Below are positions 2,335-52,900 of a stretch of DNA of 64,000 bases, piece after piece. The first letter of the stretch is position 1, and each line of letters opens with the position of its first letter. The DNA is from Catajapyx aquilonaris (lineage: Eukaryota): contig KZ538551.1 of assembly GCA_000934665.2 (NCBI GenBank), forward strand, positions 62,001 to 126,000, given 5' to 3'. The notes under the pieces were generated by a model. That model was not told the origin of the DNA, did not search any database, and was given only the letters and a program-made list of their open reading frames with translations. The position numbers were made by a program, and so were the translations under genes.

Positions 2335-4896
2335 TTAAATTGGAGCGGGTGTGGGTACGTTTATGAGAGGCGAGTCCAGTACTTCAGTCGACGTCTGGCT
2401 TGCAGGTAGGGCTTGTATCTGCTCGTTTTGCTCCAGCAGTGATTTGTACAAGTCCTGTACAGACTCGCTGTGCTGTAACGCAACAATTAACAGGTCATTA
2501 CAAATTATATATTTTTTTGGAAACAATTCGGATATCTTATCGTCACTTGCAAGTACAGAAAAACACAATCATGAAATTATCCAAAAATTGAAAACATGAC
2601 CTTTGACTTTTATATCACTTTAATGGCATGTATTTATTTACTTACTTACGTACTTGTTTATTTTAAACTCTATGCTCACATGTAATATTTCAGACCATTA
2701 GAAATGGCATTGCAGACAAACCTGTGCGCCTGGCTGCAACGCTTTCATTAGAGTGTCCATCCTAGCTGGAGGCAGCTTCGCATGGACGTACCAAAGCAGC
2801 TTCAACAAGTGTGCAGTAACATTCTCCCTGGTCAAACCGGCAGAAAAAAACTCGTCGAACACTACGGTGCAAAAGTCCTCCGCCGCAAACTCTTCAGCGC
2901 ACGACGACACCAAGAGGGCGACCAGTGAGTGCAAGAACGGATCCTCGTATGCCCTTTCAGCCTCGCAACTGGCCAACACACCCAGAACCCGCATGAGTCC
3001 GACCCTGTCACGAGTCTTTGCCGTGTGCAGGGTGTAGTACATGGCCAGCGTACTGGCCACGCTGCTTTCCTGCACGTAGGCTTGGTACGCATCAGGTGGT
3101 GGGCCGGAGTGCTCGATAATTGTAAGAGCAGATTCCCGCTCATCAGGTGGCAACTTGCTGTTAGTGAGCCGTATCTGGTCATCAACCATCAACGAGACGA
3201 GAGCTGGAAGGAACTTGCTGACTATCTGGATGTTCAGCTTCGGCTCCTTGAATTCCTGTGAGTTGATCATTTCCCATGAGCCGAGTCCGAGAGACAGCAT
3301 TCGCAGGAGGAGGATCAGCACCGTATTTTCCTGCAAGATCAGACATTGCAAAGTGTTTGTCACAGAATGGAAGTTGAAATCCTTACCCTCGGTAGTCCCT
3401 CCAGGTTGATAAGATGCTGCAATATCTTCATGGCAGATGTTGCCAGGAAGTTGACGGCATATGGATCGCACAAGATCATCGAGAGGTCACCCAGCACTTG
3501 CTCCTGCCCTCGTTGGATGCTGTCCAGAAACCCTTGCAGCTCTCTGGACCGTTTAACGTCCACGTTCTTCTCCCGTACACATGCGTCCAGACACCAGGTG
3601 AACTTGTGGCATGGATCGACCGATATGATGTCTTGGACCTCCAGGTCATGAAGGGCCATCAGAAGCTCAGCTCGAAGTGTGCAATAGTGGATGTTACGTG
3701 TACGAAGGAACAATGTGCGGAGAAATTGCAGCACCATGTCATACAGCTTCACTTTCGAGCCGATCATATGGGCAAGCTTCTGGACCACCTCGCCTTGACG
3801 TCGCATCTGGAGATATAATCACATTAAGGTTTGTTAAAGTATTTTCACAGAGTATTGCTGACCTTAGGCGACGGGCTGAAGAACAGGTTGTTCAAATTCT
3901 CGTGGTTGAACAGTATAGCATCCTTATCCTTGACGTACTGGTTCAATAGAGGCGACACCTCGTCGCCGAACAGTGAGTGGTGGTCCTTCCAAATCTGGCG
4001 TTTAACCTCAGTGTCGCAGTCGTCGTACAGAGCCTTGTCGCTCACCTGCAACGTATCATTGCTGATTATGCCGTTTTTGTGCAATTTTAGCAACAATTTA
4101 CCAGCACTTTCAGGTACTTGTCTTCAATGTGGCTTATATTCTTGAGGATCCCCATCACCACCGGTCTCAACTGCTTCACCTTGATCACCGGGAAGCTCTT
4201 GACCAACAATTCCTTCAGCTTCTTGTCCTTATCTTTACTGTCGCTCTGTCCCAACTCTCCCACCTTCAGCACCAGCTTGTCCCTCAGCTCCTGCAATTAA
4301 AAAAAACAAATTAAACCCAATCATGAACTCAACATGTTACAACCGACTTTACCTCCATCACGGTTATGTGGAAGTCCAACCTCTGAATCGAATGAAGGTC
4401 AAGCAAGGGCAGCATCGGTCTCAGCGACGGCAACAGAATCCCATTTTCATGCTGAAATGTTGTGCAATATTAACCTGCGAACCACTACACACATCTCCAT
4501 CTCCATTACATAAAAGGCAAAGCTTGTTTGTCTGCCCATGGCAACAGTTTGTCCACGACAACGGTTTGCCTGTTTGTCTGCCCATGGCAACTACACTCAT
4601 CTCTACTTCTATCTCTATCATATAAAAGACAAAGCCTGTTTGTTTGTCCACGGCAACAGTTTGTCCATGACAACAGGATCACCATGGCAACGACGTGTAA
4701 AGAACAGGCTCTGCTGCTAGTTAATTATTCTTCAACTTTCAACAGGCCTTGAGTATGCGTAAAATATTTTCATATGCACCTGAAATTCCTCGATGGCTTT
4801 GAGCGGGTCGTTGCAGTTGGTCAGGGCGTCCCTGAGGTCATCCCTTCCTGGAATCCCAATCTCCTCCAGTCCAATGTCGCCCATAAGACCTGCCAT
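2335..4896 (-). CDS. NELFB: Negative elongation factor B (COBRA1), 7 coding exons: 4780-4896, 4353-4451, 4102-4290, 3863-4045, 3387-3806, 2722-3330, 2335-2472; 584 aa
   Basis: Recognisable segments ENGILLPSL, EVKRQIW, LFGDEVSPLL, LYDMVLQFLRTLFLRTRNIHYCTLRAELLM, VDPCHKFTWCLDAC, QEQVLGDLSMILCDP. All six introns are GT-AG and phase 0; the spliced frame is continuous (1755 nt). AATAAA on the minus strand near 2253-2258. Confidence 0.97.
4497..4720 (+). mobile_element. Non-autonomous Helitron-like repeat in a NELF-B intron
   Basis: ATAAAAG-AAAG-(GTTT)n head present twice, and a 3' end GAACAGGCTCTGCTGCTAG ending in CTAG. Related copies at 23169-23470, 34836-35050 and 38337-38438. Confidence 0.55.
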
Positions 4897-5055
4897 TTTT
4901 TTTTTCTTCCACAACTTCTGCAACATAAGATCAAAATGCAAAATGTCAATGGCACACACTCTGCCATTTTGCTGCATTAAAAAAACTGGTGTGCCACCAA
5001 ACTTACAGGTTCAGAACGTGCCCCTGATATCGTGCGACAAACCGTACCTGCTTAC

Positions 5056-5594
5056 ACCCAGCCAATTCGTCCAGAATTCGCCAAAACAGTGCAAAATATT
5101 CGCAAATTAATGGAAAAGATGACACCGAACCAGCGCCATCTTTGAATCCGAAGCTTCACGAACCGGCCGCTAGAGGCGTTATTCCTACAAAAATCATAAA
5201 ATATTTTAAACATATTTTGCCCCAATTTTAATAATTACTATTTAATTAGGATATGCATCAATGTTAATTAAGTACGCCCTTGTTTTAACTTGAAGCAACG
5301 TTGCCAATTTGCTGGCTCTGGAACAAAAATGGAACAATGGCAGCTTCACATGTTTTGAACTGTGGAAAAAAAAAAAAAGTGTGTTCGACTCACGGTTCTA
5401 CTGAAGGTTCTGCAGAACGCGGGTTAGAACCGGTTAGAACACCTAATGAAGAACAACCCTGGGTCAATTTAATGGAATGGTAGGTACCAGGTATGGCCAG
5501 ATGTGTAGGTATTGTCTTTCATGTCATGCGAATGGCCAATTCTAATTAGTAAGTCTAATAAGACCATGGCATTAATTACAGCGCATGAAGCAAG
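5056..5594. promoter_or_regulatory. Divergent promoter region between NELF-B (5' UTR exon, donor GTAAGC at 5055) and the TFIIB-like gene
   Basis: Head-to-head arrangement. YY1-type motif AAAGATGGCG on the minus strand at 5134-5143; CTCF-like CCGCTAGAGGCG at about 5167-5178. Confidence 0.55.
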
Positions 5595-8500
5595 ATGGAT
5601 GACGACACTATACACGACATATTGCTGCGGAAGAACCTGCCTGGGTGGGTCAAGCAGATCGTCGTGGAGAGCGGCTTGCTGAAGAATCGGCAGGAGTTGT
5701 ACGGCGTGGGCGGGGAGTACGTGGTGAGGTGGGTCAGGGTCGCTCAAGAATGGATGGCGCGGAGGAAGGCGGCAATGGAGGGTTGCCTGGATTTCAGGCA
5801 GTTGGCAGAGGCCGCTTTTCAGGCGGAGGAGCTGCCACGCTACCTGCCCATAATCGCGGCTACGGTGCAGGAAGTGTTGGAGGAATGTCCGCCACCCCCG
5901 CATGAGGTATGACGAGGGTGCCATATGTTAATAAATTAAAGAAAATTAATAGCTATTTATATTTGCAGGCACCGCAAGGGGATGATGACGTCATTTGCAT
6001 CGAGTCGTCTTGGATTCCCCGGGATGTTGAAATGGATGACGTGAGCAATTTCTTTGCGGCTAAACTGAACGTGTCTGAAAATCAACAGCCAGTGATTGAT
6101 GTCAATTCTCAAGGAGCAAATGGGTAAGTGCGGTGCAGCATTCAGGTGCACTGTACCCCCGATTATCCGAGCCGCACTGTTGTCGCCAGATAATCGTAAG
6201 ACATGGATAATTGGAAGATAGCTTAAAAATGAGCTCACCACTGGTTTTAAATGAATGACTGTACATACTGTATTCTGCTTTAAATAAGATTTAATAAAAG
6301 TTATTTAAATGTCCATAGATTTTTAGTTTGTATTCTGGAAAAAGTCTGTTACATTAATTTTCTTTGTTTGCAACAATTTTTGGGGGGCTTCACTTTGTTG
6401 TAGCCGTGCACAGATAATGCGTATCACGAATAACCCACACCCGGATAATCGGGAGTACAGTGTATTTCGTAACAGTTGCTCTGACCTTATGGATGGTAGT
6501 TGAAATATACAGGGTGGGCGTAAAGTCCCAGGACACCTGGCCTTTTTTTCCCTGCAAAACAAATCTGTGCATGGAAAATGTGTCGGAAATGCTGGTGTAA
6601 CATCTTCTGGACACTGACGGAACTGTTTGATGAGGGGAGACATCTGAGGACCCCCAACAACACCTATAAAAAGCATTTAGCAAGGGAAGTGTCTTTCACG
6701 CTTTCCGTCTTTCACATTTCCCATGCTGAATGCTTTTTTCTCCCACTCGTTCAAGTTACTTCTTCTCGGTGGGACCTTACCAAAAGGAGCCCTGACGATA
6801 TCCTGCATGATGTGCGTTATGTTCTTTCCCACATGAGGCCTCCCGTGGACCCACACAGTAGCCACAAGTCTCTCCTCCACAGTGAACCCGCTCGTATCTG
6901 CCATCTTGCACTGTTAACAGTGTTAACTTACTGTGGGTGTTGTTGGGGGTCCCCAGATGTCTCCCCTCATCAAACAGTTCCGTCAGTGTCCAGAATATGT
7001 CACACCAGCATCCCCGACACATTTTCCATGCGCAGATTTGTTTTGAAGGCAAAAAAAGCCAGGTGTCCTGGGACTTTTCGCCCACCCTGTACATAAAGCA
7101 AAGTATTGAAGAGTATTGGAGAAGATGGTATATGCCGATTTCATGTGGCCTGACCAGTCACCAGAGGGTTCATTGTATCGGTCAAAGAGATGGCCAGATC
7201 CATGTGTCTGGTTATTGCTGGCCACCCCTTAATGGGATCTAGGCCGTGATGAATTGTATGTACGTTGCAAATATAATTTTGGAATAATTGAATGGCCACA
7301 ACAACAATTTTCTTTTTAGGGTGCATGCAAGTCATTGGAGGTATGGTAAGTGAACCAGATTGTCCCACAAGCAATTTCGTCAAGTTTAAAAATATTTTTT
7401 GTTCCGTTTTGTAATTGGACTGAGGACATGGGAACATCAGTCTGCATTCAAAAATTATTGACTAGGATGCAGATTTAAATTGTGAGAAATGGCACAACTC
7501 AATTTGACCCGTTAATAATAATTGTTCCCATTTGCATGCTGTTCATGTATACCAGTCACAGGCTCGAAGACTAATTTGGTGCTTTCAGATCTGGAATGTG
7601 CCAGCATGTGACACCATCTGGCACCTATGATGACCCTATTATTCTATCATCCGATGATGAGCTGGAAGTAACTTCTCCACAGCCATACGAGTTGGAAGTA
7701 ACCTTTCTACAGCCAGACATTATTCCCTCAGGGAGCGTACCAACTGTAACACTTCCGCAGCCAGAGGTTGTTCTCTCAGTGAGCAGACCAACTGTAACCC
7801 TTCCGCAGCAGCCAGAAAGTGTTCCCTTGGTGAACATACTAACCGTAGCCCCTTTGCAGCGAGTAAGTCGTCCCTCAGCAACCAAGAAAAGGAAAAGGGT
7901 GACAGTACGTTCTTTGGCTTTTTACTTGATGGAATTTTCTTGCACGACTACTTGAGTTGTGAGACGTACGATAGACTGCTAGTTGACAATGATGGCACAA
8001 CTGCTGCAGAGAAATATGTAGTATGTAACAGAAGGCTGATCCCATTTCTAATTTTAGAAACCAACGGCGGCTCCTGAGATTGTTGAGACTCCTGATATAT
8101 ACTCGTACATACATAAATTTGGAGGCAGGATGAGGCTTTCAGGAGAAGTGGTTCGGAGAGCAATAGCCGTATGTCAGAAAACTAAAGGAATAGTACTTTT
8201 CCCAAGGAAAAAGGACTACAACGCTATGGCAGGTGCTTGCATCTACGTTGCATCTCGCTTGGAAAAACAGCAACGAACAATGATGGTAAGTACAGGCTAA
8301 GGTGCATATTTTACACTTTTGCCGGTCATCATGACATTATTTACTTCCTGGCATGTATGCTAATACGTGTATCACGCTTCCTTCGTTTGAGCATATCACA
8401 CGCATGATAGAAAAACCGCACGAATTTTTATTCTTACAGGAAATAGTTTCTGCATGTCAGCTACAGGGCAGGGGAAGGATACATCTCTACTTCATGAGGA

Positions 8501-9084
8501 TGAAGAAGCGTGGCATCGATGTTGGGGAAGCCATCAAATCTGTGGATTTAATCCCACACTTTTGCACAGAGCTACATTTCGAGGATAATGTCTCAGGAGC
8601 AGCCGTGTACATTGCTACCCGGGTTGACCAGTCTGGTGAAGTTGCTAAAGGAAGAGGGCCTGTAAGCGTGGCTGTTGCAGCCATATACACAGTTTTCAAG
8701 GTACATTATATGTTAAATATCCATGTGCAATGTCTAAAAATATTCATATGTAACAGCTTTTATTGCAAGGTGATGTCATGAACATGTTCATGAAGAACTG
8801 GCATGTTTACACATACTGAAGTGATTTTGTATTGCCCTGGTTAGTTGTGATCTTGCTACACTTACCACATTTTCTCTCCTCTCTTGCAGTCATTGAAGAG
8901 GTGTGATGATGCTCAGAAGATTGTCGCACATGCAGGCACAAAGGATTCTGTCATTAGGCCAATTTGGAAAGATGTAGTGGCCAAGGAAGAGTTGCTCTTC
9001 CCAAATGGCTATCTTCAGAAGCTTGCAGAGAGCCACGGAGCAGCAAAGAACCCCCACTCCCACTCAGCACAACTGGCAGGTTGA
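5595..9084 (+). CDS. Divergent TFIIB paralogue lacking the zinc ribbon; exons 5595-5906, 5969-6123, 7589-7904 (alternative donor after 7862), 8058-8285, 8440-8700, 8890-9084; ~488 aa
   Basis: All junctions are GT-AG and frame-compatible (1467 nt, no internal stop). Exons 4-6 align to the TFIIB core: YNAMAGACIYVASRLEKQQRTMM vs [37 protein letters not shown] vs [23 protein letters not shown] vs AGVADVTIR. The last two introns lie at the same positions and phase as in the neighbouring TFIIB. The link to exons 1-3 is inferred from splice phase only. Confidence 0.8.
6149..6462. mobile_element. pogo/Tigger-like MITE
   Basis: 21-bp TIRs with one mismatch: CACTGTACCCCCGATTATCCG (6149-6169) and CGGATAATCGGGAGTACAGTG (6442-6462), followed by TA. 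Confidence 0.7.
6510..7089. mobile_element. Tc1/mariner-type MITE with ~155-bp TIRs
   Basis: TA|CAGGGTGGGCG...CGCCCACCCTG|TA; arms 6510-6664 and 6936-7089 are near-complementary; TA target-site duplication. Confidence 0.9.
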
Positions 9085-9231
9085 TCCTAAGAATAAACAA
9101 TAATTATGGAGTATTCAGACACTACTAAAAGTAACGTTTTGTTGTGTGCAAAGGAGATTGGCCAAAAAAAAAAGGGTATTGATTACGACACTTATTTTCA
9201 ACTGAAGTTCTAAGTCAGAAGTGTAACATGT

Positions 9232-9382
9232 AAGCCGCTTTTACATGTGAGGGATGTTGCAACAATGACATATCGCTCAGCGAAAGTAACAATTGTGGTT
9301 ACAATAATATATTTTCACCCCAAACAATTTGTCTCATCGCTGCAACATCGCTGATCAAATCGCTCACATGTAAACGCGGCTT
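9232..9382. mobile_element. Small MITE (possibly PIF/Harbinger-like)
   Basis: 20-bp TIRs matching at 19/20: AAGCCGCTTTTACATGTGAG and CTCACATGTAAACGCGGCTT. Confidence 0.6.
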
Positions 9383-9665
9383 TGTACCTATATTTTTTTA
9401 AAGACTGGAAGCCTATTTGTAGCAGTGATGGGCACCATTCAATTCAAAGCTGAATCAGGCCACATTTGTCCAGTGAATTAAAAATAATTGGATGTGAACA
9501 GCAATGAGAATTGGAAAAATCTGAAGTGTGTAATGAATGGGACTGAATAAATTCAAAGGGAGACGTGGAGGGCTGAATAGTTGAAATACGTACGGAGCAG
9601 TGAATGATGCCCATCTCTACTTTTTTATCAATCTCATACAAAGAAAATGTGTAAAATGTACACCA

Positions 9666-10687: not shown

Positions 10688-10732
10688 TGACGTCACGATT
10701 GGAAAAATCGGGGTTTGATAAAATGGCCGCCG
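10688..10732 (+). promoter_or_regulatory. TFIIB proximal promoter motifs
   Basis: CRE palindrome TGACGTCA (10688-10695), inverted CCAAT box ATTGG (10698-10702), and YY1-type AAAATGGCCGCC overlapping the start codon. Confidence 0.55.
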
Positions 10733-13331
10733 TCGGCAGGTAATTTCTGAATCGAACGCTTCGAAAAATCCGGATTTGGACCCGGTTCTGGCCTCGTTTG
10801 GGTCTGGAAATGGTCGGGGGTCGGGCACGGGCGGGTCTAGCCACCAGGGGCGGCCAGTGGGCTGCCCCGGGGGCCACGGGCGGGCTGGGAAATGGGGAGG
10901 GGGAGTTCCAAAAGTTGTGAAATATTAATTTTGTTCTATTATTTAATGCTGCATATGAATTTATGTTGCAGCCGTGACACCCCGAAGGTATGCTGCTATG
11001 CCCACCCGGATGCACCGCTGATTGAGGACTACAGGGCCGGAGACCAGATTTGTTCCGAGTGCGGACTTGTCGTTGGGGACAGGTGCGTACCGCAGTTACA
11101 GCCTTTTACGACATGTAACGCAACTGTACTTGTAGGGTAATAGATGTGGGGTCTGAATGGAGGACTTTCAACAATGAGAAGAACAACGCGGATCCATCTC
11201 GTGTTGGCGGGCCTGAAAACCCTCTTCTCAATGGATCTGATTTGTCCACCATGATTGGGCCCGGGAGAGGAAACGCTTCGTTCGATGACTTTGGGGTGTC
11301 CAAGTACCAGAACAGGAGATCGGTAAGTTCGTTTACAGCTTGAGCGTACGTATGTATTGCGCTGTTTCGTTGATTCCAGATGAACAGCTCGGATCGTGCG
11401 CTGGTTAATGCATTCCGAGAGATCAGCAGCATGTCTGACCGGATTAACTTGCCCAAGACAATAATCGACAGGGCCAGCAACTTGTTTAAGATGGTGCATG
11501 ACGGGCGGAACCTGAAGGGCCGCAGTAACGATGCCATCGCCACCGCATGCCTCTACATTGCCTGCAGACAGGAAGGGGTTCCACGCACTTTTAAGGTAAC
11601 GCCCTGAGTAAGAATCGCGATCGGTACTTGACGGCCTGATTATTTGCAGGAGATCTGTGCTGTGAGTAAGATCAGCAAGAAGGAGATTGGCCGCTGCTTC
11701 AAGCTGATCCTGAAGGCGCTTGACACAAGCGTGGACCTTATCACCACTGGGGACTTCATGTCTCGTTTCTGCTCCAATCTTGGCCTGCCTCCAATGGTCC
11801 AGAGGGCAGCCACGCACATTGCCAAAAAGGCAGTCGACCTCGACATTGTACCAGGGAGATCGCCCATATCAGTGGCCGCTGCCGCAATATACATGGCATC
11901 GCAGGTATGGACCACACAGTTACGCTGGGGGGGGGAATAGGATGCAATAATGAGTCAACCCACGTAAGAACAGTTTCGAACAGAGGATTCATGACAAATA
12001 AACAAAGTCATTGTCATTTCTGATGAATCCTTTATTCCAAACTTACTAGTGTGTTAGGTGGCAAAAGTTTCTGGCCTATGCTCCAGGGTTGATGGAAATT
12101 AAACCACGGTAGTGTCATAAATGGACAAGTTTGTGCTCGCAAATTGAGTCACACACTTGAATAAACAACTTCAGTCAGACATGCTGCACCATTTCACATA
12201 GTATTGAAAGTCAAGTACGGAAAGGAAGGAATTACATCCAGTGCTATCAAACAGGAACTGTGGCTTCGAAAAGAATGACCATCCACCATGAGGTGATACC
12301 TGGCCCTCAGTGGCTGTTACTTGTTTTCAAATCTCAAAAAATACCTTCCAGATATATAGAAAAAATGAAAATTAATATAGTGCAGAAAACTAAACGATGA
12401 CAAGACTTCGTCACGTGTACTCCTATTGTTGCATGAGAACAAAGCGATGGCAGCAGATCGTAATTTCGTTTTCCGAACTGTAGTTGCAGGAGGCATTTCC
12501 AGACAAAACTTGGAACGATTTTTCCAACGGTATTGTTTGTTTAATTATTCGGAGATGTAAGGAATGTGTTGTAGTATGAGATGACAATACTGAAAAATGA
12601 TACTGTTGTTTTATATCCGTCACACCTTGAACACAGTCAGCCGGAAACTTTTGGTTCCTACCTTGTATTTCAAATGCAATGTTAATGTGTCATAATAGTT
12701 GCAATTTAATTATATTCACATTGTAATCATACTGAACCCTCTATATCAAAAACCAGTTTTAAATATTATTCAAAAGAAATTATTAATGATAATCGTCATA
12801 AACTAGAATTAACGCAATCTTTCTAAACAAAATGGGCAGCACTGGTGTAGTGGTTAGCGCCACATACTTCCACCTCTGAGGTCCCAAGTTAGATCTCTGG
12901 ATCGGACAGAGGATACTTCTGTGGATAGAGTTCCGATGGGTTCTCTCCATGTTCGCATGGGTTTTCTCGGGACTCCCGTTTCCTTTCACTATCAAAATCC
13001 ATCACAGAGCAGGCAGTGATTAAAGTCGGTTCACGAAAAGATGATCCCCTAAGAGGCTCAAGGAGGCCTGTCACGGGGTATCCATTATTATGACTTTGTA
13101 AACATATGCCATTTTTGTCAGTTGACAATCGCATAACACTGTCCGATTTTAATACCAATGTAATTTCAGGCGTCGGAGGACAAGCGGACACAGAAGGAAA
13201 TCGGTGACATCGCAGGCGTGGCTGATGTCACGATCCGCCAGTCGTACAAGCTCATGTATCCAAAGGCTGCAGATCTGTTCCCGGAAGACTTCAAGTTCGC
13301 AACGCCACTGGAACAGTTGCCTCAAATGTAG
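10723..13331 (+). CDS. GTF2B: Transcription initiation factor IIB; exons 10723-10739, 10972-11082, 11136-11322, 11380-11595, 11650-11904, 13170-13331; 315 aa
   Basis: Zinc ribbon (CYAHPD...[22 protein letters not shown]), B-reader/linker (DPSRVG), both cyclin repeats and HTH ([17 protein letters not shown]). All introns are GT-AG; 948-nt continuous frame. Confidence 0.99.
12834..13000 (+). mobile_element. tRNA-derived SINE with a V-SINE-like core, in TFIIB intron 5
   Basis: A box TGGTGTAGTGG (12843-12853) and degenerate B box GTTAGATC, then TGTGGA...GTTCTCTCCATGTTCGCATGGGTTTTCTCGGGACTCCCGTTTCCT, resembling the V-SINE central domain. Confidence 0.7.
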
Positions 13332-14164: not shown

Positions 14165-14402
14165 TCCAATCAGATGGACAGAGCAGAACATGGCCTATAG
14201 AACGTGCTCCTATAGAGAAGGAATTATGCAGTCTGTACATGATGGCTTGATTATTCGCAGGAGATCTGCGCCGTGAGTAGCCACCATGAGGGTGGCGCTG
14301 CGGACAGGCTGATCCTCAAGGTTCTCAACATAAGTTTCATGACTTATTTTTTGCTCCAATCTTGGCTCGCCTCCGATGGTCCAGCCAGGCACATTGCCAA
14401 AA
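14165..14402 (+). pseudogene. Decayed TFIIB fragment (exon 4 acceptor, intron 4 end, deleted exon 5)
   Basis: TGATTATTCGCAG|GAGATCTGCGCCGTGAGT...GCTGATCCTCAAGG...TGCTCCAATCTTGGC...CACATTGCCAAAA is collinear with 11637-11828 but carries frameshifting deletions. Confidence 0.85.
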
Positions 14403-14417
14403 ATGAAAAAAAGAAAA

Positions 14418-14665
14418 GCAAATTCAAATTTGGTGCCATAATTTCAGATTATTTGGCGACCTGTTCAATAGTTGTCATTTGGCTGAATTTCATGCAATTC
14501 GCTCCTCAAATTTGGAGACTTTTCGTGAGTGTTTCTTTCTTCAGTTTTTTCTAGTTACCAAGAGTGTATTTCTCGATTGTAATTAGCTGTACTTGTTTGC
14601 AGAGGAGGGGCCGAATTTCTGGTCGACAAGGTGAAGAAACATGTCAGGCCTCGCTGCCTGCAGAA
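14418..14665 (+). pseudogene. Degenerate copy B of the URM1 promoter and exons 1-2
   Basis: AATTCAAATTTGGTGCC...TAGTTGTCA matches 17664-17726. The ATG is lost; the GTGAGT donor and TTTGCAG acceptor are kept; the exon 2 copy from 14603 reads GGAEFLVDKVKKH. Confidence 0.9.
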
Positions 14666-14729: not shown

Positions 14730-17336
14730 ATGAGCAGCTCGAATCCTCGCCTGGCTAATGCTTTACAAGCAATGACCAGCGTGGCCGATCATATCAACCT
14801 GCCCAAGGCAACAGTCGACAGGGCCGGACACTTGTTTAGGACCGTGCGATTCAAGCATCGCACCAAAGACGCAATCGCATTCGCATGCCTTTACCTTGCC
14901 TGCAGACAGGACCACGTCCCCTGCAGCCTTCATGTAAGGCTAATTATGCGTAAAAGTATACAACGGGGTCACATTTAATAATAAATAGCATTAAATATAG
15001 GTATTTATAACTAATAAATTATTGTTTGTCATGTGTAAATCACTCATGGAATTAGCTCCTGGAGAAGAGCTAGTGCAATTGATGGCCTGATTATCATTGC
15101 AGGAGATCTGCGCTGTGAGTAGGATCGACAGGAAGGAGATTGGCCGCTTCTACAAGCTGATCATGAAGGCTCTCAACATCAGCGTGGACCAGGTGAACAC
15201 TGGGGACTTCATCGCTCGATTCTGCTCCAATCTGGGCCTGCCTTTGATGGTCCAAAGGGCCGCCACACACATTGCCGAAAAGGCAGTTGAACTCGGCATT
15301 GATTTCCACTCGAGATGGCCCACAACAGTGGCCGCCGCTGCAATATACATGGCATCGCAGGTATGGATCACATGGTTGTGCTGGGAGGGTACAATTTAAT
15401 ACCAGTGTTAATTGCAGGCTGATGTATCTGTAAGCTTAATTGGGGATGTTGTACCAAGTAATGATGGTTGTGGGGATATTGTTAAGGAGAAAGGGGGCAA
15501 CACCAAAGTCTAACTGGTTGGGCTACGTACCGGCAAGGACGAACCGCAGGGGTTTACGAAGCCTGCGTGAATTACAAATGCATTAACTTACCAAAATCAA
15601 GATAGTTTCAGTGGTTGAAGGGTGCAGGAGGACTGATGACATGAAGATCGAATGGAATTTATTCATACGAACATGATAGAGTTATCGTATCTAAGACAAA
15701 TTCAATAATATTTGATGGTTGGCAACAACAGTCATAATCGAGTCACTCAATTGTTGACGCCTAAGGAGGATACCGTGGAAACTGAATGAAATATAATAAC
15801 AAGTTGAATGAATGAAATGGTTATTTAATAATAATGTAATGAAAATAAGGTAAAGCATATATTTATTTAAGCAGTTAGCGTACGTAATTCCGCATAAGGT
15901 GTAGAGATGATATTTACACAAAATAATATTCTAAATCATGTGTGACTATTGTCACACGTGGATTCCAGTTGCACGCATTGCTGCTCATAATGAATTATTC
16001 ACTTATAATTTTATTTCGGGGTTCTATTACGTCCTTGGGTTTTTTGTGTAGGGGATCGGGCACTGCAGCACGTCGGGCCGGATACGTGTTCAAAATATGA
16101 AGGCTGTACTTGCAACGGGTTTTGAGATATGCTTGACAGAAAAACTCGTCTCAACAAGAACAAGGAAAATTTTCATTGTTGTTTTTGCACGAGGATCTTA
16201 CTTATAGGGACTATCATCAAGTGGGCCTTTAAAATTATTAAATATTCCAATGGAGTCTCACACTCCAACGTGCGTGAAAATAACATGACATACATGATCA
16301 ATAGCTGTAAATAAGACCAGGATTCCGAAATATGGTTTTCCTGATGACCGCCATTTTTATGAATTAATTACGCGCTAATGAGAGCCTAAAAACTTGGGGT
16401 CTGGGGCGTTTTACGTTCAGGAAGGGATGTAGTATCAGCACCGTAAATGGCATCTTCTCCGCCAAAAGTGAAATATTCCGTCACTATTTCGGACGTTCCG
16501 ACCCCACTACAAGTAAGTTTTCTAGAAATAAGGACTTATCTTCTGCCTGTAGGTTGTCTGTCTATTCTCACGTTATGGTTCCTTCACTTATGTATGGTAG
16601 TGAAGCGTGGGTCTGGTCAGATATGCATAAGAGTAGGGTGTTGGCTACAGAGATGCGTTATCTCCGGGCTGTTTGTGGGGTTACCAAGTTGGATAGGATT
16701 AGGAATGAGGAGATTTTGGAGAGGTGAGGTTAAAGATAAGGTGTGTAGGTCTACTCTGAGGTGGTTTGGCCATGTGGAGAGGATGAAGGAGGAGGAGATT
16801 GTGAAGAAGGTTAATTTGGGTGGAGTAGTTGGTAAGAGGGGCAAGGGTAGGCCTAGGAAGACATGGTTGGACCAGGTGGGCCAGTGTCTTAAGGGTGTTG
16901 CTAGTGTTAAGCCGAGACGTTCATGTGTCAATAGGACCATGGACGTGGCTGAGGCTAGGGTTGTTTGTTTGGATAGGTGTAAATGGCGTAGGTTAACTAA
17001 TGGGTAAATATGTCTGAGGATAAGGTGATGTCTGAGGTGGGGGGTGGGACAGGTTGTTTTTAGGTTTATTCTCATAAGTTTTATTAGTTCATATGTTGGG
17101 TTAGCTTGCATCTCCCTTCATCGCTGACTACCCCTCATAGGGAAATGTCGTGATGTTGTTGTTGTTAATTGCAGGCGTCTGAAGACAAGCGGACACGGAA
17201 GGAAATCTGTTACGTCGTTGGCTTGTATGACGTCTCTATCTGCCCTTTGTACAAGCTCATGTATCAGAAGGCTGTAGATCTGTTCCCGGATGACTTCAAG
17301 TTTGCGACGCCTTTGGAACAGTTGCCTAAAGCATAG
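14730..17336 (+). CDS. Core-only TFIIB paralogue; exons 14730-14933, 15103-15360, 17175-17336; 207 aa (could be a young pseudogene)
   Basis: Copies of TFIIB exons 4-6 with intact splice sites, only in-frame length changes (-12, +3, 0 nt) and a stop at the homologous position. The ATG is the first codon of the exon 4 copy. Confidence 0.65.
15420..17162 (+). mobile_element. Truncated RTE-clade LINE insertion (probably with deleted or nested interior) with a 14-bp TSD
   Basis: RTE C-terminal motifs YGSEAW...[22 protein letters not shown], then after a frameshift [10 protein letters not shown]...[12 protein letters not shown] (about 16590-17007). (TGT)n tail; TGTTAATTGCAGGC repeated at 15406-15419 and 17163-17176. 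Confidence 0.85.
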
Positions 17337-17777: not shown

Positions 17778-19878
17778 ATGGCGTCGACTTTGGGCCTCGA
17801 AGTTGACTTTTCGTGAGTGTTTTCCTTCAATTTTTTCTCATTACCAAGTACATTTATGGACTGTAATTAGCTGTACTTGTTTGCAGCGGAGGGGCCGAAC
17901 TGCTGTTCGATAAAGTGAAGAAACACCAGGTCTCGCTGCCCCTAGACGACCAAAAACAATGTGAGTCATGCCCCTGACAAATGGTCATGAACGTTTCCTT
18001 TTGCTGCTGAAAATATTAATTAAAATATCGGATTATATTTAATTGCGTTAAGTTAACTATTGCATTACATTTCATTGAATTAATTGCGTGAAATTAGATT
18101 ACTTACTATGTTAAATTTAATTTCATTGAATTAATTATATGAAATTACACTACTTACAATGTTAAATTAATTCCAATACGGTTATTCCAATATTAAATTA
18201 AACCATATCAAATTACATGCCACATTACATTATTTACAATGCTACATTAAATTCAATTACATAATTAAAATATTACATGAAATTCCATTGCATTTATTAC
18301 AATATTGAAATAAATGTTAAAATAAACAACATTAAATTACATGTTACATGACATTACAAGACAAATTAAATTATTGCATAAAATTAATTACATTTATTAA
18401 AATAATAAATTAAGCACAGTTGTAAAGGAAATAATGCGGTCCTGCCTTGTATGTCATGATAACTCGAGATTAAGTTTGCCATACTTTTCAGCTCTAAAAT
18501 CTGTGTTAGCTAGCTATTAGCGCAAAAATGGGATCCTCTGACTGCCACAACTTTCCAGCGAGCTGTTAGTAATGCCATCACTCCGCCTAATCACGTTTGA
18601 TGTCACCGGAACCATCCTACGCTTTCGGAAGAATCCGGCTGACCAGTATGCGGAGACGGCTGCCGCATTTGGCCTCGTTGCCGATCGCAGTCTAATGTTA
18701 TCCAGCTTCAAGTCAAGCTTCAAGAGAATTAATGAGCAGCACCCTTGCTATGGGGCGTTGACCAGCTTGGCTTGGGAGGACTGGTGGCGCAAAGTGGTCC
18801 TGGGCACGTTTCATGGTGCAGGGGTCGAAGGTCAGGCGTTGGGCGAGGTGGCCCAACGTTTGATCAAGTTTTATCACACCTCAGATGCTTGGGAGGTGTG
18901 CCCCGGGGCTCGTGAGATACTAGAAAAGTCACGGAAACATCGGCTTGAGGTTGGGGCGTTGTCCAACTTTGACCCGAGTTTGGACCCGCTTTTGGGCACT
19001 ATGGGAATCAGACAGTTGTTTGATTTTGTAGTCACGTCGCATGAAACTAAGTGCGCCAAACCAGGCTCAGCCATTTTTATAGCCGCATTAAACAAGTCGA
19101 AGTTTAATCTCAAGCCATCAGAGGCTGTTCATGTTGGCGACAACTACGAACTGGACTTTTTAGGTGCCAAAAAGGCAGGGTGGCAAGCACTGCTGGTTAG
19201 TCAGAACGTACCTGATGGAATTTCTAGTGAGCACCAGAAGTTTGTCTTTCCCTCACTGCAAGAGCTGTCCGCACACTTGTTCAGGTTGGGGATCCCATTT
19301 TTGCGATACACAGGTCGAAAGCTAGAATTTTACAGTTGTATTTGCTTGTTTCAGGGACAATTCAGCACTTACTGGTGTGGATTAAGGACAATCTGTTGCG
19401 GCAGAGGCCGGAATTGTTCATCAAAGGTGATTCGGTGTAAGTGTTAGCTGCGGAATCTTCTAAAAACATGCGATTAATACTAGGAAAACTTGTATCTTTT
19501 TTTCCCTGAAAATCTGGTCAACTCTTGGGTATTGTTGTTGCCAAGGTTTTTTTATTGAATCAGATTCCAATGTACACAAATGGGTTGGAAATATATTAAT
19601 TTACATACAGGGTTTTTATCGCTGTGTGTTGTATTCACACATTATGAAGTTCAACTTGTGCACAATGTTGTTGTTAATAAAATGTCTGCTATTGTTGCGT
19701 AGGAGGCCTGGAATACTTGTGCTGGTGAATGATTGCGACTGGGAATTGATGGTGAGTAGTTACCTGTGCATTGAAGGGATTTGCAATTAACAGATTTAAA
19801 TCGTTTCAGGGCAATTTGGATTACGAGCTCAAAGAAGGTGACAAGATATCGTTTATATCGACTCTACACGGAGGATGA
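17778..19878 (+). CDS. URM1: Ubiquitin-related modifier 1; exons 17778-17812, 17887-17960, 19355-19436, 19703-19751, 19810-19878; 102 aa
   Basis: Spliced product [102 protein letters not shown], with the URM1 signatures GGAELLF, RPGILVL.ND.DWEL and ISTLHGG. Missed by the ORF track because the exons are short. Confidence 0.98.
18521..19305 (+). promoter_or_regulatory. 16-bp perfect inverted repeat pair bracketing the HDHD3 exon (candidate long-range pre-mRNA stem)
   Basis: CGCAAAAATGGGATCC (18521-18536) and GGATCCCATTTTTGCG (19290-19305). Confidence 0.65.
18572..19385 (+). CDS. HDHD3: HAD-like hydrolase (HDHD3/Reg-2 type) nested in URM1 intron 2; likely exon 18559-19284 spliced to 19355 (stop 19383-19385); the unspliced ORF runs to 19447
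   Basis: HAD motifs LITFDVTGT (I), LSNFD (II), KPGSAIF (III), [18 protein letters not shown] (IV). CAG|GTTGGG donor at 19284/19285, where recognisable similarity ends. Confidence 0.9.
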
Positions 19879-49900: not shown

Positions 49901-52900
49901 TTCTCTTCTCTTGACTTGGCGCATTCCAGCCTCTCCCTCCTCGAACTAAGCCATCAACTTTGCACGTTTGCATAGGCTTAATGTCGCATTAGGCGATAAT
50001 TTACAGATCCTCAACTCATTACTATTCACGGCATCATCAGTTAAAACCTTCCAAATTTAGTGAGGAAGAGGATTACCTCCGAGGAAAACGAGGCGAAGAA
50101 GAAAAGTAAGAAAATAAGTGCACTATGTCCTTGCATCATCAGGAAGAAGAAAAATCTAAGATAAATCAGTGCGAGTTCGAAGTAATTAGCAAAGTATTGC
50201 TCCGAAGCAAACAAGTTCAGTTCCTGGAACAAAACGTACTGTACTGCCCACACAGTAACTTCTGTTTCCAAAGAAATTAAATGAAAAAGCAGCAGTCAAT
50301 TTCACGTTATTTTGTTGTTTGCTCATTTTTGTTCAACTTTATTAGCGTAATTTGCTTTACATGTCTTCCTACATAATTATTATAGTGAAATTGACTTTTC
50401 CAGCGACATCCAATGTGAAAACTGATCTTTGTTGAAATATAACTATGGTCCATCCGGAAGCGTACTTGAGCTCCTTCAAATAATACTAGATGAGACCCTG
50501 CCAACTTCTCCCTCATGGGATGGAGGATACCTATCACAAGGAGAAGCCGGCGGTAATGGCCCCCACTCAAGTATCAAATTTCGGGGGGACGACCCATCAT
50601 CTACTGACTTAACAACCCTAGGCATTACGTTACTAAATAAACTGTCGGGAGGTGTGTTTTTAGCCGATAACGTCACTCGGCATAAGCCCGCAATAATTTC
50701 CACGTCGGTTTTTCTGGGTGTGTACGTAATTAAAGAACCTCCTTTTGTTAGTATACTACTTATACTGCTAGTAGCTGCTACTAACTACAAAAGTGTGAAG
50801 AATAAACGAAATGAATGTACTTTGGCTCTATAGGTTTGAGTCTCTGTTTGTCCGCGGTGAGTCATGCAACGACCCTGAGAGTGGCAAATGCGCCATCTGT
50901 CTGAGTAATTTGGTACTAAAGGCAGGGTGGCCAGATTGAACAGATTGTTTTTTTCTTCTTCTCAAAGTGTGTGAGGGTTGCATTTTTTTCCCCCCCATCG
51001 ACTTCATTCCTGACTCCTTCCGCAGGCGAGAGAACCCCGGGTTTGCCCTTGGAGGGTGGGGCTTGGCAGAAGCACAGTTCGGGATCATCGATCCAGCAGG
51101 GCTGCTAGCTGGCCCCATAGGGGACCAGACCAGGCAGTGCAGTGCAGGGGTGGGCTATACTGCAAACTAGAAACCTACCCCCCCTCGAAAAAAAACCCCC
51201 TCCTCTCATCCCTAAGCTTTGGACAAGTGGGCGCCAAACTCATCCTAATCACCCCCTGTCTTTTTGCACGGACCCCTCAAACGACCTGCGACCTTTCTGC
51301 TAACTAAAACTAGGCGATTGGAAGGCGGAAATGTGATCCTTTTGCACTACACGCTCCTCTGGTTTTCTCGTCGGAAGAGAGCTTTTAATTCTCCCAGTCG
51401 CCCCCCTCAATTCCGTAGTGGGTGGTTAGCAGTGGGGGAAGTTCCAGATAGATGATGTCCATTTCCGGCGTGGCAGGAGCCAAAACCTCGTTTTTTCTCT
51501 AGTATTTCGACTGATGTGCGGTGAGAGGTTATTCACTGGTACTATGCCCTCCGTATGACCACCTTCACTTACAGCGAAGGTGGTCATCGGGAGGGCCACT
51601 CTTGGAGGCTAATTTGAGCTGCAGGTATGCTACCTTGCTCATTTCCACGTGGGTAACTCACCTCATTGTTGGTATACCAGAGCTCTCTCGGTTTTATTTT
51701 TTTGCGACCGGTTTTTGTTTGCTGAACGCTCTGGATTATCTTGGGGGGGACTTGCTGGGTGCAAAACCTTTGACGTGTCCCCCCTCTACTAACCCTGGAA
51801 AAAGTTGGGTGGCTGTGGTCTTGGTGGCCATGTTTTCATTGCGGATCTAGACTAGGGGGTAGGGGGGGTTGCCCATAATCTCCTCAATCCCGAGGAGACG
51901 CTTTTGTGCAGTATAATCGACTCATATAAACCGGACGCTCATTTACATCCGTGCTGGTCAAGCCAACGTGAAGTAATCAAACCAGCCCTCAAAAAATTGT
52001 GTACACTTTTTTGCGCAATATTTCGGCCAACAAAATGAGAGAGAAAAACAGCTACACACAGGAAATTATAACAGATGGTTAAGATACTTACATTATATTA
52101 TATTAATTGTAATTTTTCTGGTGGAATAATTGAATTTAACGTGCTCGTGCTTTGGGCCCTATCTGGACCCCCCATATTGGTGCAGCTGTGATTCTCGCAT
52201 TCCCGGAATGGTTCAAAAATTGACAGGAGTTAATTATCGACCGGCGTTTGGGATTCCTGCGGTTCAGAGCCTGGCCTAACACTGTTTGCAGCGTGTGTTC
52301 CGCTCGTAACCAGAAGAAAATAGGATGTGCTGCAATTGCGCATACTTTCGCCCCCCAAAACCTTTTTTTTTGGAAAATAATGAATCGGCATCATACATAG
52401 AATTGGCTCGAGTCTGTGCCTCTGTTTTGTCCTGGGTTAGTCATCTATGTGAGGAATAGGGTACTACATTTTGGTACGGGATTGTGAATCATAAATTAAG
52501 AGCCGAATCTGCAGCTTTGTGATGTCAAAATGGGGGGCGCTAGAAAGGACCATTAGTCGTCTCAACTATAGCCTGGACTATAGTCCCTTGTTATATATAT
52601 AAAAAGAAGGAGAAGATCGATGGCACAGCATCAGCGCGATCGAGACGCAACAGCTTTAATGGGAATACGGGGAAAAAGAAATTCATTTCACGCCTCCGGA
52701 AACTCTCCCACCATTTTTTTCCCCCTCCTTCTTCCAGAGCTTCCAGGTTTTCTCCCCGCCGGGTTTCAAACTAAGGGGCTTCCCAAAAAAAAAAAAACTT
52801 TTTATGGTTTTCCATGGCAAACGAGCGTAATTCTAATTAAAAATCCCGCATAAACTTGAAGAAACTTATTCCCCATCTGTTTCAATAGAAGGAGGGGAAA

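Follow-up and report, generated by a model that had tools for sequence, protein, structure and literature searches.

A divergent tandem paralog of TfIIB without a detectable zinc ribbon in Catajapyx aquilonaris

Structure of the locus

The window analysed in this work is a stretch of 64,000 nucleotides (nt) from Catajapyx aquilonaris (assembly GCA_000934665.2, contig KZ538551.1, positions 62,001 to 126,000 of the forward strand), and all coordinates given here count from its first letter. At 5595-9084 on the + strand it holds a gene, which we call paralog A, whose predicted protein carries the core of the general transcription factor TFIIB behind an N-terminal half that resembles no part of TFIIB. 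Paralog A is followed on the same strand, 1.6 kb further downstream, by the canonical TfIIB gene. We consider it very likely that paralog A is a tandem, ribbon-less paralog of TFIIB that is maintained by selection. An earlier reading of this DNA, made from the letters alone and referred to below as the original prediction, had proposed a TFIIB-like factor with SUMO-interacting motifs (SIMs), and much of what follows bears on its claims.

Paralog A consists of six exons that join to 1467 nt, i.e. 488 codons and a TGA stop with no internal stop, which is the length that the original prediction had given for this in-frame model. The sequence AG|...|GT is found at every internal exon border. The start ATG at 5595 lies directly 3′ of an in-frame TGA, and an AATAAA follows the stop codon at 9092-9097. 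Exon 1 (5595-5906) provides 104 codons with a GC content of 0.60, is predicted to be helical and hosts no known domain. Exon 2 (5969-6123) is acidic and contains the SIM-like segments VICIESS (5990-6010) and VIDV (6092-6103). Exon 3 (7589-7904) contains a third such segment, PIILSSD (7635-7655), in-frame tandem repeats (7659-7809) and a basic KKRKR (7884-7898); a second possible donor at 7898/7899, also in phase 0, would drop two residues if used. The TFIIB core is divided between the remaining exons. The first part of cyclin-like repeat 1 is encoded by exon 4 (8058-8285), the end of repeat 1 and the start of repeat 2 by exon 5 (8440-8700), and the end of repeat 2, which includes the helix-turn-helix region, by exon 6 (8890-9084), together with a short C-terminal tail of 22 residues and the stop codon.

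The model is consistent with codon usage. A score trained on 1248 codons from the neighbouring genes prefers the proposed frame in six out of six exons. For exon 1 the score is +31.5 in the proposed frame versus -33.3 and -19.7 in the other two. For exons 2, 3 and 4 the frame that scores best, determined separately for each exon, also agrees with the proposed junction phases, e.g. phase 2 between exons 2 and 3.

The canonical TfIIB gene (10723-13331, + strand), the parent, was first seen as a 28% tblastn match at 11515-11892. It has six coding exons, and its product of 315 amino acids (aa) comprises the core as well as the ribbon, reader and linker. Human TFIIB is matched by exon 5 with an E-value of 4e-46, the protein shows as much as 88% identity to TFIIBs of insects, and in a 26-row tree it falls in a hexapod clade (96/90) within Pancrustacea (99/97). 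The last three introns of paralog A correspond to those of this gene: the introns between exons 4 and 5 and between exons 5 and 6 occupy the same aligned columns, that between exons 3 and 4 lies within 3 codons, and all are in phase 0. The claim that the core retains the intron positions of TFIIB is borne out by this comparison. A side observation on the canonical gene is that its last intron, of 1265 nt, contains a tRNA-like stretch near 12830-12900 that is not called by ARAGORN.

A further TFIIB gene, copy C, was found by tblastn with the canonical protein. Its three exons (14730-14933, 15103-15360 and 17175-17336, + strand) encode the core only, with intact splice sites and an open frame of 207 codons that begins at the ATG of the exon-4 equivalent. 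Pfam TFIIB matches have E-values of 1.4e-8 and 1.8e-14, and 134 of 206 aligned residues are identical to the canonical core. The equivalent of the TBP-contact Thr and several helix-turn-helix residues are changed. The pairwise ratio of nonsynonymous to synonymous substitution rates (dN/dS) is 0.48 and, because the parent is almost frozen, this implies a near-neutral rate on the branch of copy C itself, despite which the frame is open. The last intron of copy C measures 1814 nt and includes open frames of 119 and 186 aa at 16368-17007 (+ strand); these have no Pfam match and presumably resemble transposon-derived sequence.

Upstream of copy C there is also a degenerate, frame-broken relic of TFIIB exon 5 (14243-14440, + strand; tblastn matches at 14258-14398 and 14349-14438), the apparent trace of a further, dead partial duplication. 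Because copy C and this relic lie beside paralog A and the parent, the locus is best described as a three-member cluster (paralog A, canonical TfIIB and copy C) that arose as the 3′ half of TfIIB, which encodes the core, was partially duplicated more than once. Judged in this way, paralog A is an old tandem partial duplicate of the hexapod TfIIB gene.

The TFIIB core

In an exon-by-exon Pfam scan, PF00382 is matched by exon 4 (E 4.3e-8, 33.5 bits) and by exon 5 (E 2.2e-7, 31.2 bits), both above the cut-off of 23.6 bits. A hidden Markov model (HMM) built from 100 animal TFIIBs, i.e. 99 database sequences and the canonical protein of the window, aligns residues 277-465 of paralog A only, with an E-value of 1.9e-25, and covers both repeats. 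The proposal that the C-terminal half is a TFIIB core is confirmed by these searches, which include the HMMER and Pfam check that had been suggested for it. A search of PDB sequences gave archaeal TFB and human and yeast TFIIB as the top matches; human TFIIB is matched by exon 5 with an E-value of 2.7e-4. The core shares 57 of 180 aligned residues with canonical TfIIB and is net basic (34 K+R, 22 D+E).

A conserved Arg and Thr of TFIIB pair with E284 and E286 of TBP (PMC7221094), and R169 and T176 have roles in the contact with TBP (PMC6004067, PMC7221094). Paralog A keeps the equivalents of both of these human residues, as R324 and T331. The equivalents of Y165 and R175, which like them are encoded by exon 4, are also retained, as are those of R286 in exon 6 and of K290, and there is an aromatic residue at 289.

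The N-terminal region

At E ≤ 1, none of exons 1, 2, 3 and 6 matches a Pfam family. Exon 2 of canonical TfIIB, taken as a positive control, matches Zn_Ribbon_TF (PF08271) with an E-value of 5.4e-6. When residues 105-277 of paralog A are compared with an HMM of the N-terminus of TFIIB, i.e. of its ribbon, reader and linker, the score is -1.8, which is equalled or beaten by 637 of 1000 shuffled sequences. No relic of a ribbon was found by tblastn between 5000 and 8058, and the first three exons together encode only 4 cysteines (2, 1 and 1). By these measures the zinc ribbon, B-reader and B-linker are absent from paralog A beyond detection, in line with what the original prediction had said of the ribbon and the reader. 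We also considered that the SIM-like segments may be remnants of motifs that TFIIB itself has there (PENPLL and the second CxxC knuckle among them), which follow one another in the same order on visual inspection and in the top local alignment. This idea was rejected for lack of support: the pairwise N-terminal score of 35 against TFIIB is reached by 42 of 500 shuffles and the N-terminal HMM is silent.

The 261 residues that stand in front of the core are net acidic (38 D+E, 22 K+R). No relatives of exon 1 were found among the 170 candidates of a word-indexed search, and there was no usable ESM Atlas match. AlphaFold2 models exon 1 alone as all-helical, with a predicted local distance difference test score (pLDDT) of 50.8 that is too poor for a fold search. 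Neither blastn nor tblastn found a second copy of exons 1-3 in the window, where the best other match has an E-value of 0.42 (52701-52811).

Three segments with a hydrophobic core and an acidic flank had been claimed for this region. A strict SIM pattern, i.e. a four-residue hydrophobic core rich in V, I, L or P with a flanking run of D, E or S, fits VICIESS (aa 112) and PIILSSD (aa 172). There are thus two matches where 5000 shuffled sequences average 0.13 (P = 0.0068). The pattern occurs nowhere in the canonical TfIIB protein and 7 times in the 38,140 residues of 120 TFIIBs. The third segment, VIDV, is without an acidic flank and fails. The proposed Pro/Thr/Val repeat linker is also present: the motif VT.(P/L)Q(P/Q/R) was counted five times, against the claimed four or so, and derives from in-frame tandem repeats in the DNA of 30 bp (1.9 copies) and 48 bp (2.1 copies). 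The KKRKR that had been pointed out lies at aa 255-259, just N-terminal of the core.

Transcription and splicing

The transcript data used here are the contigs of one public run (X1), with neither its kind nor its tissue on record, which were placed on 5000-9600. The run contains 0.26 of the words sampled from the locus, and it behaves as RNA because its contigs carry GT..AG joints. Three of the five junctions of paralog A were seen as such joints, namely 5906/5969, where the last 49 nt of exon 1 are joined to exon 2, 8285/8440 and 8700/8890. Paralog A is a real, spliced and transcribed gene.

A further contig covers exon 3 from 7588 to 7880. It starts one base before the acceptor, and there is no cover of the intron just upstream. 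The first base of this contig is common to the end of exon 2 (...GG|) and to the end of the intron (...AG|), and a k-mer assembly of low-depth spliced and unspliced forms would be expected to start there. If so, the acceptor of exon 3 would be in use, whichever sequence is joined to it.

On the other side of paralog A lies NELF-B (COBRA1; 2701-5160, - strand), with Pfam COBRA1 matches at E 2.7e-84 and 8.5e-49, in a head-to-head arrangement. A minus-strand contig of the same run shows that the NELF-B transcript ends at or beyond 5160. The gap of about 435 bp between this point and the ATG at 5595 is likely to be a shared bidirectional promoter.

Two mobile-element-like insertions were identified, both in intron 2, which agrees with the claim that two miniature inverted-repeat transposable elements (MITEs) are confined to one intron. 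The first (6149-6462) is MITE-like, with 21-nt terminal inverted repeats that are 95% complementary. The second (6505-7094) is a foldback or MITE-like element whose arms, 6542-6673 and 6927-7058, are 91% complementary. The contigs that were placed over them (6232-7309) show 90-95% similarity and run out into different sequence; the elements are therefore multi-copy, and at other places in the genome they are transcribed or sit within transcripts.

Divergence and selection

Between the cores of paralog A and its parent, the proportion of synonymous differences (pS) is 0.75, i.e. saturated, and the proportion of nonsynonymous differences (pN) is 0.49. The duplication is therefore old, and the replacement sites have not been randomised. 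The retained residues are also unevenly distributed. Paralog A keeps 33 of the 63 columns that are at least 98% invariant in the 100 TFIIBs, and matches its parent at 21 of the 124 other columns (odds ratio 5.4, Fisher P 1e-6). In the tree its end branch is 10 changes per column long, versus a median of 0.1; the placement of paralog A in that tree was discarded as meaningless owing to this long branch.

That the 488-codon frame and ten splice sites are intact at such a divergence argues, on the sequence, against neutral decay. The original prediction had reasoned in the same way from the open frame, and this part of its case is supported.

Possible function and origin

What might a TFIIB without a ribbon do? 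The explanation that we favour, with a confidence of about 0.5, is that paralog A is an old ribbon-less duplicate that would bind TBP-DNA without recruiting RNA polymerase II (Pol II) and would serve as a competitor or an adaptor. A study in Tetrahymena describes the zinc ribbon as the part that recruits Pol II, also where the TFIIB is a specialised one (PMC12082453). Because the TBP-contact residues and a part of the DNA-reading helix are kept and the ribbon is lost, a seat on TBP- or TRF-bound DNA without Pol II recruitment can be predicted. An N-terminally truncated TFIIB is known to bind TBP-DNA and to be inactive. Our literature search found no report of a dominant-negative TFIIB core. 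Taken on its own, we would rate the binding of TBP-DNA without Pol II recruitment at slightly less than an even chance.

The core would then stay on TBP- or TRF-bound promoter DNA and, with the docking part gone, Pol II would not be brought in by the TFIIB route. Paralog A may thus compete with TFIIB as a natural ‘core-only’ inhibitor, or it may act as an adaptor whose new N-terminus brings in other partners. SUMO-modified proteins are one candidate partner, through the SIM-type motifs, although we think it unlikely that paralog A works through SUMO. The KKRKR could serve for nuclear import. Another possibility is autoinhibition, in which the acidic N-terminus would fold onto the basic core. 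If the testis-biased TfIIB paralogs known from stalk-eyed flies are a guide, paralog A is probably expressed with a bias towards the germline.

The origin of the gene is likely to have been as follows. Exons 4-6 alone would have been duplicated, as in copy C, and 5′ exons would then have been recruited from the divergent promoter region of NELF-B. The latter step is suggested because NELF-B lies head-to-head with paralog A.

A more elaborate version of these ideas can also be formulated. In this version paralog A, retained since ancient times, would be an ‘anti-TFIIB’ or an adaptor with its core on TBP- or TRF2-bound DNA, whose phospho-regulated SIMs read SUMOylated chromatin and so couple the SUMO or heterochromatin state to a block, or to a non-canonical licensing, of germline Pol II initiation. 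It would be the counterpart, within the TFIIB family, of Moonshiner and TRF2, and copy C would add to the same cluster a younger modulator that likewise consists of the core only. We regard this as a very improbable, speculative scenario.

Alternative explanations

A number of observations weigh against the competitor or adaptor explanation, and they are given here with the alternatives that they would favour. Some concern splicing; a failure of exons 1-3 to join exons 4-6 had been named beforehand among the outcomes that would refute the prediction. The junctions seen in run X1 lie within the two halves of the gene, and no 6123/7589 joint between exons 2 and 3 was seen among its contigs. The sole contig over the exon 2 donor (5967-6171), the one in which exon 1 is joined to exon 2, instead continues unbroken for 48 nt beyond 6123 and stops at 6171, inside the terminal repeat of the first MITE-like element. 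The frame of this read-through form ends at once, at a TAA (6125-6127), such that some or all transcripts may encode exons 1-2 only. The run gives no cover of 5616-5769, 7310-7463 and 7926-8079, the last of them within an uncovered stretch of 7881-8112 into which the junction between exons 3 and 4 (7904/8058) falls. The locus may therefore hold two transcription units: a short transcript of exons 1-2 from the bidirectional promoter of NELF-B, with an ORF (open reading frame) of 156 codons that ends at this TAA, and a separate mRNA of exons 3-6 with another, unseen 5′ exon, the 488-aa fusion being a modelling artefact or a minor isoform. The high GC content of the stretch around exon 1, in which two other frames are open as well, fits with this. 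Against it, the exon 2 donor (TGG|GTAAGT) is strong, the best codon frames of exons 2 and 3 suit a phase-2 junction and that of exon 3 suits exon 4. The contig over exon 3 begins exactly at the base that is common to spliced and unspliced forms, with no intron cover just upstream, although its bearing depends on the inferred assembly effect. On balance we consider two units to be possible yet unlikely. A different alternative accepts the whole protein as a true initiation factor, whose new N-terminus would contact Pol II, Mediator or TFIIH in another way and drive a special set of genes, e.g. germline or transposon-derived transcripts. The contact residues of the core are kept, and specialised TFIIB-like factors do exist. 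Emit3 in Tetrahymena (PMC12082453) and an expanded plant family (PMC10671200) are described as such, and the testis TfIIB paralogs of stalk-eyed flies are reported to be highly expressed (PMC4824122). Exons 1-3, however, resemble no known Pol II-binding module in the Pfam, word-indexed and ESM Atlas searches, and we judge this alternative to be distinctly unlikely.

Paralog A may also be expressed and yet functionless, i.e. a decaying duplicate of the chimeric ‘young gene’ type or a transcribed pseudogene. The extremely long branch would suit such a gene. No orthologue was found among 138 candidates at E ≤ 0.001 with exon 5, nor among 170 with exon 1, in word-indexed searches with single exons as queries, which weak orthologues may escape. 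(A HMMER scan of exon 5 against 1.84 billion representatives returned one protein at E ≤ 0.001, which proved to be a mis-assembled canonical nematode TFIIB and was rejected.) The exon-3 repeat copies differ evenly over the codon positions, with 6 nonsynonymous codons versus 1 synonymous in one comparison and 3 versus 2 in the other; the repeat linker thus appears to be young and not visibly constrained. In addition, copy C is evolving almost neutrally and there is a dead exon-5 relic nearby. Set against these points are the intact codons and splice sites at saturated synonymous divergence, the 5-fold enrichment of retained identities on family-invariant columns and the fact that both repeats pass the curated Pfam cut-off from single exons. 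Decay is in our view quite improbable. Could paralog A instead be an orthologue of another member of the TFIIB family, i.e. BRF1, BRF2 or TAF1B/Rrn7? The original prediction had listed such an orthology among the outcomes that would overturn it. Beyond the shared cyclin-like fold nothing speaks for it. In the PDB search BRF1 appears only at E 0.25-0.31, BRF2 and TAF1B do not appear, and the gene has neither a ribbon nor a BRF-type C-terminal extension, stands in tandem with TfIIB and has introns in common with it. The chance of this identity is practically negligible.

Two further points bear on the biochemistry of the favoured competitor or adaptor. In human TFIIB the residues G153 and R154, and V283 and R286, read the TFIIB recognition element (BRE). 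Paralog A has Lys for G153, Gly for K188, Ser for V283 and Val for T284, and the position of R154 is Lys in one alignment and Arg in the pairwise alignment. Given these substituted positions, contacts with TBP or the BRE may be altered. For the SUMO-interacting part, a looser definition of the SIM gives 1 match versus 0.95 expected, i.e. no excess. The claim of three SIM-like segments holds for two of them, under the strict pattern, and with the looser one the count is that of chance.

Comparison with known systems

Compared with canonical TFIIB, as represented by the neighbouring TfIIB and human GTF2B, paralog A has in common the two cyclin-like repeats, the last three introns with their phases, and the equivalents of R286 and of the Arg and Thr that contact TBP. 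It differs in the lack of the ribbon, reader and linker, in the low identity of the core, in its unrelated N-terminal residues and in its C-terminal tail. By its core it belongs to the TFIIB family, but with two defining modules searched for and not found it is not a canonical TFIIB.

How unusual is a second TFIIB? One paper states that the genes of basal factors, those of TFIIA and TFIID excepted, occur as single copies across the eukaryotes, all the way from yeast to humans (PMC4824122), and another that the TFIIB homologs of most eukaryotes number just two, one serving Pol I and one Pol III (PMC10671200). A close parallel is found in the Diopsidae (stalk-eyed flies), where fast-evolving, lineage-specific and mostly testis-expressed TfIIB paralogs are reported, with four extra copies per species (PMC4824122). 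In both groups there are lineage-specific, accelerated TfIIB duplicates with several copies per genome. The acceleration of paralog A is seen in its end branch, and in its pN of 0.49 compared with a parent that reaches 88% identity to other insect orders. In Catajapyx the duplicates stand in tandem and are ribbon-less, and one of them has new 5′ exons. The Tetrahymena protein Emit3, which is TFIIB-like and stage-specific, is likewise a lineage-restricted, specialised relative of TFIIB without B-reader elements (PMC12082453).

Other systems offer likenesses of concept. The TFIIA-L paralog Moonshiner acts with TRF2 at Drosophila piRNA clusters, and testis TAFs are also known. These illustrate how a germline paralog of a basal factor can retarget initiation via a new protein-binding part, which by analogy may apply to paralog A. 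Moonshiner belongs to a different protein family, however, and no evidence from this locus connects paralog A with the germline, with heterochromatin or with piRNA clusters. Among the SIM-containing readers of SUMO are RNF4, PIAS and Daxx. VICIESS and PIILSSD resemble their motifs in having a hydrophobic core followed by an acidic or Ser run, in agreement with a SIM-a type pattern. The likeness in paralog A would be limited to short linear motifs, and does not extend to VIDV.

The literature searched, the scope of which did not include most subscription journals, yielded no account of an animal TFIIB paralog that lacks the ribbon and has had its N-terminus replaced. Fast-evolving TfIIB paralogs of insects are already known (PMC4824122), and it is the loss of the ribbon together with the replacement of the N-terminus that would be new here.

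A retained and expressed core-only copy of TFIIB would be a natural separation-of-function allele, with which one could ask whether core-only TFIIBs serve cells in occupying or silencing promoters. Paralog A could further reveal how a partially duplicated gene acquires new N-terminal exons. The cluster as a whole presents several stages of duplication within 12 kb: an old ribbon-less copy, the parent, a young ribbon-less copy and a dead relic. If the SIM-type motifs work, SUMO signalling would be linked directly to the core promoter machinery.

Other features of the window

The remaining neighbours that were annotated lie on both sides of the cluster. Towards the start of the window there is a C3HC4 RING-finger ORF on the - strand (254-907). 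Beyond copy C, on the + strand, a single-exon gene (18542-19444) encodes a HAD-family hydrolase of 301 aa, and is followed by a weak Urm1-like piece (19464-19787).

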